From assembly GCA_902500205.1 (NCBI GenBank), contig GCA_902500205.1_4868.1: a DNA stretch of 64,000 bases. One strand, 5' to 3'. The notes beneath the pieces were generated by a model. It made no database searches. It was given only the letters and a program-made list of their open reading frames with translations, and was not told where the DNA came from. Shown piece by piece: positions 3,093-32,369 of the stretch. The translations under genes were made by a program, and so were the position numbers. How positions within the stretch are numbered: the first letter of the stretch is position 1; each line of letters opens with the position of its first letter. This DNA comes from Escherichia coli (GTDB taxonomy: Bacteria; Pseudomonadota; Gammaproteobacteria; Enterobacterales; Enterobacteriaceae).

Positions 3093-3626
3093 ATGGCAGA
3101 CCGCTATCAGCCCGACCTAACACTCTCGTCGAAAGCGCTTGTCGTGGCGTTGATTAATCACGATAACGGCTTGTCATTATCGCCTGACGAGATTGTGATA
3201 AGCGGAGTAGGGCCAATCGACTTAGGTGTTGAAAGTGCCCGTACCTCGCAAGCGTACATTGCGAAAGCACGTAAACCTAACGGCAAGAAGGTTACCGTCT
3301 ATTACGACCGTCTAGTCGCTAATAAGATTATCGACCCGCAAGGACCGATACTGGTTACTGTAGCTCCCGGCGACACCTATGCTGATTTAGCGACAGTTGT
3401 AAACCAGTTATGCGGTTTAAACTTGTCACGTGAAGACATCTCGACAGGGGTTATTACACCAACAAACGAGCCGTTGATTGCAGCGATGAGTGACGATTCA
3501 CCGGCTTGGACGGCTACCTTTACATTCACGGCGTTTAATGAAAAAGAAGCTGTGGCAAGTCTGGATGAAGAAACTGTTTTATGCATCGGTGATGATGCAG
3601 TGTTAACCTACGGAGACGATGCATAA
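3093..3626 (+). CDS. hypothetical protein
   Basis: ATG 3093 five nt after GGAGG; the longer ORF-track start (3057) lies inside the terminator hairpin. Confidence 0.55.
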   Translation: MADRYQPDLTLSSKALVVALINHDNGLSLSPDEIVISGVGPIDLGVESARTSQAYIAKARKPNGKKVTVYYDRLVANKIIDPQGPILVTVAPGDTYADLATVVNQLCGLNLSREDISTGVITPTNEPLIAAMSDDSPAWTATFTFTAFNEKEAVASLDEETVLCIGDDAVLTYGDDA

Positions 3627-27433: not shown

Positions 27434-29611
27434 ATGTCCTACACTCCTGATTTAGTGGCGACCGTGATTCGGTCGCTCAACCGTAAAAACGCGGTCGCCA
27501 GAGCAGTAGACCCCGCTAACGTACGCCTGGTGTCCGTGGCGCATCGTGACGAAAAAACCCTAGACGTCACACTGACAGGGGGTCCGGGGTATTCTAGTTA
27601 CGGTCAAATTACGGCCCAGGTCACGAAGCAAAATATTGCTGATTATTTCGCTAAGGTTAAGTTGGATGCCATTCCCACTTGTGCGTCCATCCACGAACTG
27701 TTGCCACATTTAGACACTCTACTAGGGATTACCTTTTTAACCGACGACTTTGAAGACCTGCCCATCACTTGGACAAACAATGCTGCGCGCATCACGTTCC
27801 AGGCGAAACAGACAAGTCTTATCTGGTACGGCAGCCAAACGCTAGATGTGATAAACGGTGACGTGGATATCAACACTGTCTACACTGTTACCAATATCAT
27901 TTTCACGCTAAAGGCTGCGAATAAACAGCAGTGGATTAACTTCTACTCTAATGCAGCCAAACGGATCGTGGATCTTGATAAAGTCGATGTCAGCGCCCCG
28001 ATGTCCCCGGAGGATATAGGCCAAACCTCTGCGTATAACAGCGTCGTAGCTTTGACCGCTAGACCGGGGAGCGGGATGTTTGGAACGAAGTATGTGTTCT
28101 TCTCACGTAACAAACTCGAGACATATGCAGGCAAAACCACATACGTCCCGGACGATTTCACCGGTAGCCTGCATGATGCTCTGGCCATCGAGACACTCGG
28201 CATTCGGAGTGTTTTTGATGTAAACGAAATTGCTCCTGTAGAGAACCTGACAGGCGAGTGGCCGAGACAAGTGCAATTGGCACCCGTAGAGGGTTCGTAC
28301 AAAGTCATGGGCAGCGCCACGTTGAATGTGGCACGCTATCAAGATAACGAGCAAACCCTTAACCTGAACTACACAACTACGTCGCAACTTTCGGACAGCT
28401 ACTGGGCCACAACGTTGATCAACCATGCGGCCTGCGGGCGTTTGTTTGTTAACGTGACCGTAGATGCGGGGGCTTTCGTTTATCGCGACAGCAACCTGAA
28501 ACCGACGTTCGTTATCGACGAATTGCCGCAAATTGGCGAGGTGGTTTGGAACTTCGTTAACCGGGGAACCATTCTTGGTCGTGGTGGTTCGGGTGTGGTC
28601 TACTCTATGCCTGCGAACACATCAGCGGACGGAGCTGACGCAATCCACATTAGCGATACCTTCCGTGGCAAAGTCACCATCGAAAACTACGGCACCATCG
28701 CCGGTGGTGGGGGTGGGGGCGACTACTATGCGTTTAGCACCACCAAGATCGGTGGAGCTGGTGGTGCGCCTCTCGGGCCAGGCGCGGCGGTGCCCAGCGA
28801 CACCAATAACCGTAACGGCTTAGCTGGGTCCCGTGACAAAGGCGGTGCTACCCAGTTAGTCGTCGCGCAATTTACCGGCTACCAGAGTCGCTACTATGGC
28901 GGTCCGGGTGGGGATTGGGGCCAGCCGGGACGTTATACAGCGTTCGAGCAATGGAACACCCCGGCTACCGGCTCGCCGGTCTATGTCTACGGTCGTGAAG
29001 ACGGGATGTCATGGACTCGCCCTGGGATGGCAGGCGAAGCCGTCGGTGGGAATAAAAGTATCGTCAACTGGGTATCCGTCGGAACGGTGAAACCGAATGT
29101 CACCGACGAGTACCAAGAGTTCCTCGACTACCTCGCAGATTTAGATGCCAACCGACTGGCTAGTGCGGATGGGATAGATAAAGTCACCGACCCAACCAAA
29201 CCTGTAGTTGTGGAGTTCTTAGGTACGATTATTTCAGGTACGCTGTTCAAAAAGCAAAACATACCCGGCGGTTTGGTGGGAACACCATACGGCGATGCTG
29301 TAGCCAACTTACCAGCCACCACATTGTTTGGTATCATGGCACACTGTGTATCGGAGTTTGATATTGTGCACGACACTTGGCGTTACAACCGCGCGGTAAT
29401 GTTCACGCTAAAACCCGCACCTACCGGGGCGATTAGCCTCGCTGTGGAACGCAACCGGGTGAAATCGGCTACCAGTAGTGCACCGGTGGAGAAGTTCTAC
29501 GTCGATCGCTTCGTGTATTACGATGCGTATCTCGGTAAAATGATGGAATGTAATCCGTATACCAAATCTGCCCCTAAACCGTGGGTGCGGCCAACGATAC
29601 CGTTATCGTAA
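27434..29611 (+). CDS. family-A-related large protein, 725 aa, Gly-rich internal segment, C-terminal TKSAPKPW motif
   Basis: Weaker N-terminal family resemblance; internal GGGGGGDYYAFSTTKIGGAGGAPLGPGAAVP; C-terminus NPYTKSAPKPWVRP parallels the preceding gene. Confidence 0.65.
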   Translation: MSYTPDLVATVIRSLNRKNAVARAVDPANVRLVSVAHRDEKTLDVTLTGGPGYSSYGQITAQVTKQNIADYFAKVKLDAIPTCASIHELLPHLDTLLGITFLTDDFEDLPITWTNNAARITFQAKQTSLIWYGSQTLDVINGDVDINTVYTVTNIIFTLKAANKQQWINFYSNAAKRIVDLDKVDVSAPMSPEDIGQTSAYNSVVALTARPGSGMFGTKYVFFSRNKLETYAGKTTYVPDDFTGSLHDALAIETLGIRSVFDVNEIAPVENLTGEWPRQVQLAPVEGSYKVMGSATLNVARYQDNEQTLNLNYTTTSQLSDSYWATTLINHAACGRLFVNVTVDAGAFVYRDSNLKPTFVIDELPQIGEVVWNFVNRGTILGRGGSGVVYSMPANTSADGADAIHISDTFRGKVTIENYGTIAGGGGGGDYYAFSTTKIGGAGGAPLGPGAAVPSDTNNRNGLAGSRDKGGATQLVVAQFTGYQSRYYGGPGGDWGQPGRYTAFEQWNTPATGSPVYVYGREDGMSWTRPGMAGEAVGGNKSIVNWVSVGTVKPNVTDEYQEFLDYLADLDANRLASADGIDKVTDPTKPVVVEFLGTIISGTLFKKQNIPGGLVGTPYGDAVANLPATTLFGIMAHCVSEFDIVHDTWRYNRAVMFTLKPAPTGAISLAVERNRVKSATSSAPVEKFYVDRFVYYDAYLGKMMECNPYTKSAPKPWVRPTIPLS

Positions 29612-29654: not shown

Positions 29655-29690
29655 TGCCCTCTTCCCCACGGGGAAGAGGCTTTCTTTTTA
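29655..29690 (+). terminator. intrinsic terminator
   Basis: CCTCTTCCCC..GGGGAAGAGG hairpin followed by CTTTCTTTTT. Confidence 0.7.
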
Positions 29691-29716
29691 TGACCCTATC
29701 AACTCAGGAGGTTATC

Positions 29717-30307
29717 GTGGTCGATCGTTGGAGTAAAGAGGGCATTATTCGTGCCAAAGTAAACATCGAAGCCGGTTACGTTAATAACCCGAAAGATTTG
29801 GGTAAAGCAACGAACCGTGGTGTCACCGAACTCACGGCGCGTGAATATGGCTATAAAGGGGATATGCGTGACCTGAGCTTAGAAATCGCGTTAGACATTT
29901 ACAACAAGCTCTGGTGGCAGCGAATGCGTTTAGACCAGATTATGAAAATGAATGTCCTGCTAGCTGACCGGATGTTTGACTTCGGCATTAACGCAGGACG
30001 CGGTAACTGTATCAAGTCCCTGCAACGTATTCTGAACGTATTAAACCGTCAGGGTAAACTATACGATGATATCGATGCCGATGGTGGTATCGGGCCACGT
30101 ACGTTAACAGCGTTAGAAGGCTTCATCAAAGCCCGTGGGGAAGAGGGCCTGAATCGACTGATGTTCGCTTTAACCTGTCATCAGGTTGCGTATTACACGG
30201 AAATCAGTGAAGGGCGTGAGGATAACGAAGAGTTTACTTACGGCTGGTATGGCCGCGTCTATCAGGAAATGCCAGACTACGTGGCTAAGTTGGGGATGTG
30301 CAAATGA
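29717..30307 (+). CDS. putative endolysin, glycoside hydrolase family 108-like N-terminus
   Basis: GTG 29717 five nt after AGGAGG; N-terminal EAGYVNNPKDLGKATNRGVTE resembles the GH108 signature (EGGYVNDP.D.GG.T..GIT) as I recall it; position at head of a lysis-type cassette. Confidence 0.55.
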   Translation: MVDRWSKEGIIRAKVNIEAGYVNNPKDLGKATNRGVTELTAREYGYKGDMRDLSLEIALDIYNKLWWQRMRLDQIMKMNVLLADRMFDFGINAGRGNCIKSLQRILNVLNRQGKLYDDIDADGGIGPRTLTALEGFIKARGEEGLNRLMFALTCHQVAYYTEISEGREDNEEFTYGWYGRVYQEMPDYVAKLGMCK

Positions 30308-30379
30308 AACAGAATTGGTTTGCTGCCTTAATGAAAGCTATCTGGCGCGCCCTTGTTTTTGCCGCAAGGAGAAAACGTA

Positions 30380-30532
30380 ATGACCCACCGTCCAACTCCG
30401 CCTAAGTTCCCCGAAGTACAAACCGTTCCGGAAACGTATTACGATTCTGGGTTCTTCAAACTATTACGCGCGATCTTCTGTCGGAGGGTAAAACCATGCA
30501 ATACGACAACGACGACTGGCCGAAAGGCTTAA
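30380..30532 (+). CDS. possible small lysis-associated protein (50 aa)
   Basis: ATG 7 nt after AAGGAGAAAAC; Pro-rich N-terminus, poly-Thr tail. Below ORF-track size cutoff. Confidence 0.25.
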   Translation: MTHRPTPPKFPEVQTVPETYYDSGFFKLLRAIFCRRVKPCNTTTTTGRKA

Positions 30533-30588
30533 TGCCCATTTTACTGGGATTAATGGTCCTCACGATGCTCGTGCGTTATATGACGTGA
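30496..30588 (+). CDS. possible small membrane protein (30 aa; holin/spanin-like candidate)
   Basis: ATG 7 nt after GGAGGG; single TM-like segment GLMPILLGLMVLTMLV; overlaps previous small ORF in another frame. Confidence 0.25.
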   Translation: MQYDNDDWPKGLMPILLGLMVLTMLVRYMT

Positions 30589-30595
30589 GGTCAGT

Positions 30596-31237
30596 ATGGA
30601 AGCACTTAAGTATAAGTTGTTAGAGAAGCCGTGGTTTATCCTCACGGATGATTTCCATTTCGAGTTTACGTTGCGCAGCCTCTATCGTGAACAGACCGGA
30701 ATGGATGCGATGGTAGCATTAGCAGGTGTGCATCCGGATACCCCGTTATGGGTAACGGTACCGAGAGGATTTGTGACGGACCTGGCAAGCATTCCAGAAG
30801 CGTTACGTCCTATCCTGCATCCGGATGGGCCTTGGGCTGCTGCCGCTTGTGTGCATGATTTGTTTTACCAGAAACGTTCATCGGTAGGCTTTTACCCTGA
30901 CACCGTTGAAGGTAATCTATCTCGTGCTTGCGACAAAACATTCGCTGACCTGATGTTCTTACGCATCATGGAGGCATTAGGCGTTGACACCTTTATTCGT
31001 AAGTCCTTCTACCGTGCCGTTCACGAGTTTGGTTGGCCGTCCTATGTAGACGATAACTCTAAGGTGGTTTATAGCCGGCCGGTAGAAAAGACGTTGTCCT
31101 ATAATCGCAACTACCTGTTCTTTAGAACGTCGCGTACGTTAGCGATTCCTGAACACGAACGTGTTGACATTACTAATGGGCAACCGGTAAACGTGCAGTA
31201 TTTGAATATCAAACGTGCGTTCCTGACTACCCCTTAA
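30596..31237 (+). CDS. DUF1353-like protein
   Basis: Motif VPRGFVTDLASIP matches the G.(V)TDGASIP signature of DUF1353 as I remember it. Confidence 0.45.
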   Translation: MEALKYKLLEKPWFILTDDFHFEFTLRSLYREQTGMDAMVALAGVHPDTPLWVTVPRGFVTDLASIPEALRPILHPDGPWAAAACVHDLFYQKRSSVGFYPDTVEGNLSRACDKTFADLMFLRIMEALGVDTFIRKSFYRAVHEFGWPSYVDDNSKVVYSRPVEKTLSYNRNYLFFRTSRTLAIPEHERVDITNGQPVNVQYLNIKRAFLTTP

Positions 31238-31246
31238 GGAGAGAAA

Positions 31247-31762
31247 ATGTTTCATCCGAATCCTGCCAACTTCGCGTTAAAAGAGTTGATGCCGCAGGAG
31301 TACATCGCGAAATACGGTGAAGGTGCTATTCGTTTCCTTAATCCGTTACTGTTAATCTCGCTCCAACAGATTCGTAATCGTTTTGGGCGGATGGTGATTT
31401 TAACCAGTTCCCAGCAACAGCGTAGTCTGCGTACCCTGCAGTTCTTTATTAATCAAGAGAAACCAAAGGGTGGAGATTGGCAAACTCGTGCAAACAAACT
31501 GTACGCCGAATCAGGCAGTATGCATAAATTCGGTAATGCGTTTGATGCAACAATGCTTGATACTCCGTTGCAGAAAGTACACGACTATATTGCCGCGAAC
31601 CCTAACGAGTTTCCGTTTATTCACTTTATCGAGTGCGATATTACCTGGCTACATGTTGACGTACGCAACCAGCCTGATATCACCTTCTGGTCACCGACAC
31701 GTGGTACCGTTAAAGTGGTTAAGCAACAACCCATCGATTGGAGCAAGCTAGTTAAAATCTAA
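31247..31762 (+). CDS. putative M15-family peptidoglycan peptidase-like protein
   Basis: SMHKFGNAFD fits the SxHxxGxAxD zinc-site motif of peptidase M15 (VanY / L-Ala-D-Glu peptidase type); RBS AAGGAGAGAAA. Confidence 0.4.
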   Translation: MFHPNPANFALKELMPQEYIAKYGEGAIRFLNPLLLISLQQIRNRFGRMVILTSSQQQRSLRTLQFFINQEKPKGGDWQTRANKLYAESGSMHKFGNAFDATMLDTPLQKVHDYIAANPNEFPFIHFIECDITWLHVDVRNQPDITFWSPTRGTVKVVKQQPIDWSKLVKI

Positions 31763-31842: not shown

Positions 31843-31888
31843 CCCTTACCCACTCCCGTAAGGGGAGTGGGTAAGCATTATTTATTTT
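31843..31888. terminator. bidirectional intrinsic terminator
   Basis: CTTACCCACTCCC-GTAA-GGGGAGTGGGTAAG flanked by A-run upstream and T-run downstream; sits between converging plus and minus genes. Confidence 0.7.
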
Positions 31889-32369
31889 CTTCTAACGGAA
31901 CAATCGTAATCGGAGTAGGAACTTCACCGATAAACCCGCTGCTGCAGCGAAAGAATGTCATCCCTTTACCTTCGCCGGTATACGGGTTCACATCCGAAAA
32001 AGAGTAAGTGGGGCTATCGTTTACGGTTTTATTAATACGGTAATAACGCTCACCTGTGGTGGTGTTAACATTCCCGTCGATTTTGCCAATTGTATCTTTA
32101 AACATCATCGGTGACTCTAGTTTGCCACCGTCCCACGTTGCTACCCAGTTTGCACCCACATCCATTACTGTTACTGACCGCGGCATCATCTGTAGATTGT
32201 CCAGAACCGGACGGTAGTCTACAAACTTCTCCTGTGTCCCTGTGCATGTATAAATCACCAAGTCGTGATTCTTTACCGGTGTGCTGCTAAATTGTCCGAT
32301 GTTGCTTGGTGACTGGACGCAACCGGTCAACAGGCTTATAAACGCGAATACGATAAATAGACGTTTCAT
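31878..32369 (-). CDS. predicted lipoprotein (163 aa)
   Basis: N-terminus MKRLFIVFAFISLLTGCVQ: positively charged start, hydrophobic core and L-T-G-C lipobox; isolated minus-strand gene between plus-strand units. Confidence 0.6.
   Translation of the reverse strand: MKRLFIVFAFISLLTGCVQSPSNIGQFSSTPVKNHDLVIYTCTGTQEKFVDYRPVLDNLQMMPRSVTVMDVGANWVATWDGGKLESPMMFKDTIGKIDGNVNTTTGERYYRINKTVNDSPTYSFSDVNPYTGEGKGMTFFRCSSGFIGEVPTPITIVPLEENK

Follow-up and report, generated by a model that had tools for sequence, protein, structure and literature searches.

A muramidase, a phospholipase A2 family protein and a predicted zinc peptidase in one gene block of an SPN3US-like jumbo phage: a candidate lysis-type module

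A block of six genes at positions 29717-31762 of a 64,000-nucleotide stretch of DNA (the window; contig GCA_902500205.1_4868.1 of assembly GCA_902500205.1, filed under Escherichia coli) is, on balance, best read as a lysis-type module of an SPN3US-like jumbo phage, a late and self-contained unit for degrading the envelope that most likely helps to burst the host. Over 2.2 kb around the block, the window is 99% identical to the Salmonella jumbo phages SPLA5c and SPFM and 96.7% identical to positions 135336-137530 of SPN3US (genus Seoulvirus), which identifies the source of the DNA as an SPN3US-like jumbo phage of that genus. The large genes of the block, three in number, are those of SPN3US gp156, gp157 and gp158, all of which are labelled 'hypothetical' in GenBank, while the PHROG-annotated SPLA5c record labels them 'endolysin', 'tail assembly chaperone' and 'endolysin', respectively. 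An earlier note, made from the letters of the window alone, had described a lysis-type cassette and regarded two different peptidoglycan-targeting activities in one cassette as its notable feature, although two peptidoglycan hydrolases in one phage are ordinary in themselves. What that note overlooked is that DUF1353, the family of the middle protein gp157, is no longer a family of 'unknown' function but the TtaP phospholipase A2 (PLA2) family; therefore, the notable combination is a muramidase, a phospholipase and a peptidase, which goes beyond two wall hydrolases.

The six genes all lie on the + strand, overlap or are closely spaced, have good ribosome-binding sites and are flanked by two strong intrinsic terminators, and the block is one bounded unit. 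All open reading frames (ORFs) listed in the earlier note were recovered with their coordinates, strand and ribosome-binding sites, and the terminator that it had placed between the upstream fibre-type array and the block was found at 29658-29679. The features of the block and its borders are as follows (TM, transmembrane; pN/pS, nonsynonymous and synonymous differences per site).

27434-29611: upstream neighbour gp155, tail-fibre-type, with DUF7941 and Gp38 adhesin domains
29658-29679 plus T-run to 29690, + strand: intrinsic terminator with a 9-bp G+C stem, ending the tail-fibre paralogue array (terminator scan)
29717-30307, + strand: gp156 homologue, GH108 and PG_binding_3, 196 aa (Pfam, PHROG and PDB sequence matches)
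30304-30405, + strand: ORF a, 33 aa (PHROG match, conservation, pN/pS)
30380-30532, + strand: ORF b, 50 aa (conserved core, AAGGAG ribosome-binding site, pN/pS)
30496-30588, + strand: ORF c, 30 aa, one TM helix (annotated in SPLA5c and SPAsTU; pN/pS)
30596-31237, + strand: gp157 homologue, DUF1353, 213 aa (Pfam, catalytic residues, fold)
31247-31762, + strand: gp158 homologue, M15-like, 171 aa (PHROG, motif, fold)
31845-31875 (stem) to 31885, both strands: bidirectional intrinsic terminator with a 13-bp stem, common to the block and the convergent lipoprotein gene gp159 and marking the 3' end of the unit

Downstream of the block lies gp160, which also carries DUF7941, so the block sits inside the tail-fibre region.

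The assignment of gp157 carries most of the argument. DUF1353 (PF07087) was detected at residues 52-142 (E 2e-17, 62.9 bits against a cut-off of 22.5), and the motif quoted in the earlier note, VPRGFVTDLASIP, is present on invariant columns of the family, so that the DUF1353-like label given there holds. The typhoid-toxin islet encodes one member of the family, the 125-aa protein TtaP, which has been shown to be a genuine phospholipase A2; it is distantly related to the group XIV secreted PLA2s and has the catalytic residues H70, D71 and D85. Its activity is abolished by D85A, and it depletes phosphatidylethanolamine (PE) and phosphatidylglycerol (PG) in lysates (PMC11525133). Prophage DUF1353 proteins appear in that study only in the Methods section (PMC11525133). 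In gp157, residues H87, D88 and D118 are invariant in 41 homologues and, in an alignment, fall on H70, D71 and D85 of Citrobacter homologues (117 and 127 aa), which share the TtaP numbering and served as a stand-in for the TtaP sequence in this mapping. The PLA2 core spans approximately residues 52-150 between beta-rich N- and C-terminal extensions and resembles group XIII/XIV secreted PLA2 (4AUP, 1LWB) by fold comparison, which alone was informative, as sequence-only PDB searches with the gp157 and gp158 family profiles returned nothing meaningful. Thus, gp157 is a DUF1353 protein with the catalytic His/Asp/Asp and the fold of a TtaP-type PLA2, and sn-2 hydrolysis is predicted for it by analogy with TtaP. 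No signal peptide was found in gp157. The protein also matches PHROG 1158, whose label 'tail assembly chaperone' was not traceable to any experiment; a chaperone would not need the invariant catalytic residues and PLA2 fold of gp157, which therefore point to an enzyme. Several SPFM records (proteins P0026-P0033 and P0092-P0100) carry gp157 and gp158 in frameshift-scrambled form: HMM scores are high although BLAST covers little of the sequence, and the tblastn matches come in several pieces. The scrambling looks like the result of indel errors in sequencing or assembly, with no biology behind it.

The first gene of the block, gp156, starts at GTG 29717, 5 nt after AGGAGG, a start that agrees with how the homologues from Machina, Kwan, phiEaH2 and an IMG/VR clade begin (M-x-D/E-R-W/F-S). 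The GenBank start, ATG 29690 (205 aa), was rejected as probably wrong, given that this ATG lies inside the T-tail of the upstream terminator and that homologue N-termini from four genera fit GTG 29717. The protein has an N-terminal GH108 domain (PF05838, residues 15-94, E 7e-18, 65.4 bits against a curated cut-off of 21.2) followed by a C-terminal PG_binding_3 domain (PF09374, residues 98-180, E 5e-19, 68.7 bits against 24.6). It matches the PHROG 315 endolysin (E 6e-39) and, over its full length, the sequences of the Sen1395 (PDB 6V3Z, E 1.7e-41) and TtsA (6V40, E 5.5e-39) structures. In the alignment to these two sequences, gp156 keeps the Glu and Thr of the TtsA triad (Glu14, Asp19, Thr28), while the middle residue is Asn, the same as in Sen1395. 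Sen1395 is an active muramidase with Asn at this position, TtsA is active too, and TtsA-type enzymes can be specific for LD cross-links (PMC6996933); gp156 is closer to Sen1395 (non-LD-specific, phage-type) than to TtsA. The best NCBIfam model, 'holin-associated N-acetylmuramidase', was matched far below its equivalog cut-off. By these matches gp156 is a soluble GH108 protein of the TtsA/Sen1395 type and a predicted N-acetylmuramidase, and the GH108-like signature described previously is borne out by both Pfam domains, the structure-sequence matches and the catalytic Glu and Thr. Neither a signal peptide nor a transmembrane domain (TMD) was found in gp156, which would therefore need a membrane lesion to reach the cell wall.

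The last gene of the block encodes gp158. Against Pfam M15_3 (PF08291), this protein scores E 0.008 and 16.8 bits, below the cut-off of 23.2 and over residues 32-55 only, while its match to PHROG 894 'endolysin' is strong (E 3e-26), and 12 of 18 close relatives match PF08291 at E <= 0.05 (best 7e-8). The zinc ligands H93-x6-D100 and H136 are invariant across the 18 relatives, as are D138, E129, D131 and R62, and a Hedgehog/DD-peptidase fold is supported by fold comparison. In E129-C-D131-I-T-W-L-H136, an acidic residue is present for the presumed general base, at a spacing that departs from the canonical H-x-H or (D/E)-x-x-H arrangement. No signal peptide was found in gp158. The M15 assignment proposed from the S-x-H-x-x-G-x-A-x-D motif is thus upheld by the invariance of the motif columns, the zinc triad, the fold and PHROG 894, but falls short of the curated Pfam cut-off; gp158 is accepted at the level of fold and motif as a divergent M15A/LAS-fold zinc peptidase, and its activity is predicted. 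The fold and the H-x6-D...H zinc triad are common to gp158 and the M15/LAS endolysins (the L-Ala-D-Glu peptidases of T5 and RB49, Ply500, LysB4 and LysECD7) and to the Streptomyces albus DD-peptidase 1LBU. Serratia ChiX, a secretion-linked endopeptidase, is also grouped with the M15/LAS peptidases.

Between gp156 and gp157 lie three small ORFs. The start of ORF a overlaps the GH108 stop (ATGA), and its product is a cationic amphipathic or hydrophobic helix, NWFAALMKAIWRALVFAARRKR, with a net charge of +6 and a hydrophobic moment (muH) of 0.64; it matches PHROG 25143 (E 3e-12) and is conserved in SPAsTU, phiEaH2 and two further loci (L016 and L024), with pN of 0.18-0.27 against pS of 0.74-0.81 in the comparisons with SPAsTU and phiEaH2. 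ORF b, also an amphipathic helix with a net charge of +6, has the conserved core D(S/A)GFFK(L/M)LRAIFxRRV and is conserved in the same two phages (core pN 0.15 against pS 0.68-0.87). Its length varies from 50 aa here and in SPN3US to 31 aa in SPAsTU and 28 aa in phiEaH2, and its Thr-rich C-terminal tail, which overlaps ORF c, is not conserved in relatives and looks like a lineage-specific read-on. In ORF c, a single TM helix (maximum KD15 hydropathy 2.58) comes after an acidic N-terminus (DNDDWP); this ORF is conserved in SPAsTU (pN 0.24 against pS 1.0) and has single-TMD positional analogues in Machina (38 aa) and Kwan (37 aa). Because synonymous sites are near saturation (pS 0.68-1.0) while amino acids are kept (pN 0.15-0.27), all three are, by this measure, real genes under purifying selection, as the earlier note had supposed for its small overlapping ORFs, one of them with a TM-like helix. 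As for its further remark that holin or spanin components are usually found at such a position, Pfam, PHROGs and NCBIfam gave no holin-family match for any of the three (ORF c matched no model at all in these collections), none has a lipobox, and the block contains no i-/o-spanin pair. More generally, neither a spanin pair nor a u-spanin was found inside 29717-31762, where there is no lipobox and no N-terminal-TMD protein of at least 100 aa. ORF c is a candidate for a holin/antiholin-type protein.

The favoured lysis reading can be put together as follows. Because none of the three enzymes has an export signal, gp156, gp157 and gp158 would accumulate in the cytoplasm late in infection. A membrane lesion made by one or more of the small membrane-active peptides of the block, by a holin encoded elsewhere, or by both, would then let the enzymes enter the periplasm, where the gp156 muramidase would cut the glycan strands and the gp158 peptidase would cut stem peptides or cross-links. 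For its part, gp157 would act on PE and PG in the outer leaflet of the inner membrane and in the facing, inner leaflet of the outer one. Lysophospholipids and fatty acids would result, a conversion expected to weaken the outer membrane, the last barrier. The module would probably act alongside a distal spanin-like pair and a secreted SLT enzyme (described below) without replacing them. Published mass spectrometry of SPN3US bears on this scheme. In purified virions, gp156 and gp157 were never detected (PMC5105663, PMC5694885), and gp158 gave 2-3 spectra in some preparations and none in tailless heads (PMC5105663), a signal that the SPN3US authors later judged non-specific (PMC5105663, PMC5694885). 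This near-absence from virions fits non-structural lysis enzymes.

Gene neighbourhoods provide a second line of evidence. Four jumbo-phage genera (Seoulvirus, Erskinevirus, Machinavirus and Wellingtonvirus) share the gene order GH108, small TM ORF, DUF1353; in Seoulvirus, as in one IMG/VR clade, DUF1353 is followed by an M15 gene. In Derbicusvirus (Phobos), DUF1353 and M15 occur with no GH108 gene adjacent, and Vibrio phage pVa-21 has DUF1353 alone. In Pseudomonas phage Bjorn, a lysozyme gene is followed by an overlapping DUF1353 gene and then the terminase, which places DUF1353 in the slot where spanins usually sit, and in Fusobacterium phage Funu2 a peptidase gene precedes DUF1353. A census of 39 non-redundant IMG/VR loci (38 upstream and 27 downstream neighbours) found wall hydrolases upstream of DUF1353 in 13 of 38 cases (GH108 8, Amidase_3 2, M15_4 2, lysozyme 1). 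Eight of these 13 are the GH108 genes of the SPN3US-like jumbo clade itself, while the other five belong to other families in unrelated phages. Downstream neighbours included five holins, one lysozyme and one M15_3 among 27. The bacterial chromosome census was used as a control from which no support was drawn, and it yielded essentially no wall hydrolases beside DUF1353 among 126 neighbours at 75 loci. Among the chromosomal DUF1353 proteins (Proteobacteria, Acidobacteria, Gemmatimonadota and Nitrospira; loci L101-L179), Sec, Tat or lipoprotein signals are frequent, which points to the periplasm as the workplace of the family. Six chromosomal DUF1353 genes adjoin caspase-like Peptidase_C14 genes, and 78 of 80 chromosomal matches fell in diderm lineages, a figure biased by the search pattern.

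Other candidates for lysis functions are found elsewhere in the genome, approximately 35-45 kb from the block and outside the window. Across the whole SPLA5c annotation, lysis-category labels are limited to the two 'endolysins' of the block and one 'transglycosylase' (184582-185304). The latter is a 240-aa SLT protein (SLT Pfam E 2e-6; phiKZ gp144 E 1e-7) whose N-terminus, MFRTILFLLVAMTTFNSNAS, is signal-like or signal-anchor-release (SAR)-like and stands in place of the wall-binding domain of phiKZ gp144. The SLT domain of phiKZ gp144 has two matches in SPLA5c, one in this gene and one in a giant 2373-aa tail protein (gp181-type). A 67-aa protein with two TMDs, and hence holin-like topology, is encoded at 181714-181917 and preceded by a 34-aa hydrophobic ORF. 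Further on, a 169-aa protein that combines an N-terminal TMD with a coiled coil and a Pro-rich tail (189503-190012) is directly followed by a 159-aa lipoprotein (190022-190501; lipobox LLTGC), a pair with spanin topology whose SPN3US equivalent lies at approximately 180.0-181.0 kb. Conservation of the two genes extends to 71-73 jumbo phages of Salmonella, Erwinia and Cronobacter, and all of the matches listed are labelled 'hypothetical'. No family matches were found for the 2-TMD protein or the spanin-like pair, and no homologues of phiKZ gp141, 141.1, 142 or 143 were found in the SPLA5c genome; SPN3US and phiEaH2 have no entry in the portion of the spanin catalogue (PMC6139136) that was covered. 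The regular-expression scan for lipoboxes missed gp159 in SPLA5c, probably owing to an Asn in the hydrophobic run, and is therefore not exhaustive. With candidate lysis functions dispersed in this way, the block is described here as a lysis-type module and an incomplete cassette, possibly auxiliary. Of the lysis-type cassette originally proposed, the bounded unit with a muramidase, a peptidase and genuine small ORFs stands, while a recognised holin or spanin is lacking; the reservation made at the time, that the true lysis genes might be located elsewhere, is in part realised by the distal SLT gene, 2-TMD protein and spanin-like pair.

Several observations weigh against a role of the block in host lysis. 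Deletion of ttaP in S. Typhi produced no envelope or secretion phenotype (PMC11525133). The gp158 protein is present at trace level in some virion preparations; DUF1353 genes carry the database label 'tail assembly chaperone' and often come after tail-fibre genes, which were among their upstream neighbours in IMG/VR (DUF4376 4, S74 1, BppL 1). A 30-aa single-TMD peptide would be very small for a holin, and no small ORF matches a known holin family. In addition, a plausible canonical set (SLT, 2-TMD protein and spanin-like pair) lies elsewhere, and for this reason the block may be accessory. There are three potential alternatives. It is possible, though unlikely, that only gp156 is a lysis protein (endolysin). 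In that case, gp157, placed by chance at the border between fibre and lysis genes, would serve in tail-fibre assembly or as an accessory or cargo enzyme linked to the fibres, and gp158 would be a minor wall peptidase of the tail that acts at entry. The position of the block between gp155 and gp160 (DUF7941) in the tail-fibre region, the PHROG 1158 label, the cases in several phages and in Citrobacter prophages where DUF1353 comes after a fibre-type gene (DUF4376, S74 or BppL), and the 2-3 gp158 spectra in virions with none in tailless heads (PMC5105663) would all be accommodated by such an arrangement; however, the His/Asp/Asp residues are invariant in 41 of 41 homologues with a PLA2 fold, the 'chaperone' label has no traceable experiment behind it, and in unrelated phages translational coupling links DUF1353 to peptidoglycan hydrolases.

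The principal lysis system could instead be the distal one (the SLT enzyme, 2-TMD protein and spanin-like pair at 181-190 kb of SPLA5c), leaving the block as an auxiliary set for envelope remodelling. Its task might be to deal with LD-cross-linked walls or those of stationary phase, or to remove envelope debris whose receptors would otherwise trap progeny. This, too, is judged improbable. The distal SLT protein combines its SLT domain and relation to gp144 with a signal/SAR-type N-terminus, the adjacent spanin-like pair is conserved in 71-73 jumbo phages, the holin/endolysin/spanin cassette of phiKZ is built around an SLT endolysin (PMC12894885), and LD-cross-link specificity is within the range of TtsA-type enzymes (PMC6996933). 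However, the distal 2-TMD and spanin-like genes are identified from topology, with no family matches and no similarity to phiKZ gp141, 141.1, 142 or 143; the distal genes are scattered over approximately 9 kb and form no cassette; gp156 is nearer to the non-LD-specific Sen1395 than to TtsA; and the GH108-DUF1353 pair is kept across four genera, which argues for a core role. Finally, gp156-158 could be packaged or injected enzymes that open the envelope when infection begins (entry or lysis from without) and not at release, in line with the virion-associated wall hydrolases of phiKZ-like phages, the gp181-type SLT domain in the 2373-aa tail protein of SPLA5c and the trace of gp158 in some virion preparations. 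Such a role is very improbable and was rejected on the published SPN3US mass-spectrometry data, in which gp156 and gp157 are never among the virion proteins and gp158 was judged a contaminant (PMC5105663, PMC5694885); moreover, all three differ from tail-lysin fusions in size and domain context.

Among known systems, the closest homologous counterpart of the lysis-type module is in the Salmonella typhoid-toxin islet, and the closest functional analogue is LysB of mycobacteriophages. In the islet, as in the block, a GH108 and PG_binding_3 muramidase (TtsA, of type 10 secretion-like kind) is paired with a DUF1353 PLA2 (TtaP) that has the same catalytic His-Asp...Asp, and neither enzyme has an export signal. 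Because the families are the same and the catalytic residues coincide, gp156 and gp157 are, at the level of sequence, the phage counterpart of ttsA and ttaP. The phage pair differs in belonging to a strictly lytic jumbo phage, in the three micro-ORFs between the two genes and in the LAS peptidase that follows; gp157 is also longer than TtaP (213 aa against 125 aa), with extra beta-rich N- and C-terminal extensions, and the purpose in the phage is presumably full lysis, whereas the TtsA route is one of controlled toxin release. The block resembles the lambda S-R-Rz/Rz1 and phiKZ gp141-144 (PMC12894885) cassettes in that a soluble endolysin and small membrane proteins are encoded together in a late unit that borders the structural genes. 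Unlike these cassettes, it has no recognisable holin family or spanin pair and adds a PLA2 and a LAS peptidase; in sequence it has no similarity to the experimentally defined holin, regulator and spanins of phiKZ. A lipolytic enzyme gene also adjoins the endolysin gene in mycobacteriophages, where LysB is proposed to finish the outer lipid barrier after wall hydrolysis (PMC5707550). However, LysB is a cutinase-like serine esterase that acts on mycolyl-arabinogalactan in a different host envelope, while gp157 would be a His/Asp PLA2 acting on glycerophospholipid; the role of LysB is proven and that of gp157 is predicted. ORFs a and b, in turn, resemble the 'disruptin' gp28 of phiKT, a cationic amphipathic peptide that replaces spanins (bioRxiv 10.1101/515445), in being short, cationic (+6) and amphipathic-helical within a lysis-type block. 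They differ from it in having no sequence similarity, in being shorter (33 aa for ORF a; 28-50 aa for ORF b) and in the presence of a spanin-like pair elsewhere in the genome.

Current models of lysis in Gram-negative hosts comprise three steps, namely holin, endolysin, and then spanin or disruptin. A conserved phospholipase gene wired to the endolysin gene would add an enzymatic, lipid-degrading step outside this standard picture, in parallel with LysB, and would account for the abundance of DUF1353 in phages under the uninformative 'tail assembly chaperone' label. Each of the families is known by itself, and databases already contain the genes, in part under wrong labels; no report of a PLA2 as a conserved endolysin partner in phage lysis modules was found in the literature on DUF1353, TtaP and phage phospholipases or spanins. 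It can be proposed tentatively that DUF1353 PLA2s are an unrecognised class of phage lysis protein, released with the endolysin and breaking the outer membrane by phospholipid hydrolysis, and that ttsA-ttaP is a domesticated copy of the phage module. If true, TtaP would gain a biological role in outer-membrane perturbation for toxin release. The authors of the TtaP study found no function for the protein and suspected outer-membrane perturbation during TtsA-dependent toxin secretion (PMC11525133). The phage context makes this idea directly testable. Amber-mutant genetics are available in SPN3US, and lambda-based complementation assays exist for lysis functions. The trio of muramidase, peptidase and phospholipase from one phage would also be a ready enzyme set against Gram-negative envelopes.

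Some further observations concern the borders of the block. On the 3' side, the gp159 homologue (31878-32369, - strand), convergent with the block, encodes a 163-aa predicted lipoprotein (MKRLFIVFAFISLLTG/C; PHROG 9559) and sits between the fibre-type genes gp155 and gp160, a position reminiscent of receptor-masking or superinfection-exclusion lipoproteins such as T5 Llp. On the 5' side, the heptamer TTATGAC occurs at 29688-29694, within the tail of the upstream terminator, and a T-rich terminator tail followed by (G/T)TTATGAC is kept 5' of the GH108 gene in Machina, pEa_SNUABM_6 and Kwan. TTATGAC(C) was also found approximately 25-35 nt 5' of start codons at four intergenic sites of SPLA5c (101310, 102637, 145457 and 235488) and may be a phage promoter element. 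An apparent depletion of TTATGAC in the window (1 copy against 8.6 expected) was dropped, as the genome-wide count is 18 against a median of 26 for 7-mers of the same composition. Around the same border, positions ~29675-29760 of the window are identical to SPAsTU (L006, ~3104-3190) over at least 84 nt spanning the terminator tail, the ribosome-binding site and the first ~15 GH108 codons, while the remainder of the GH108 gene has 76% identity to SPAsTU at the protein level, a contrast suggestive of recombination, with a mosaic junction at the block's 5' end.

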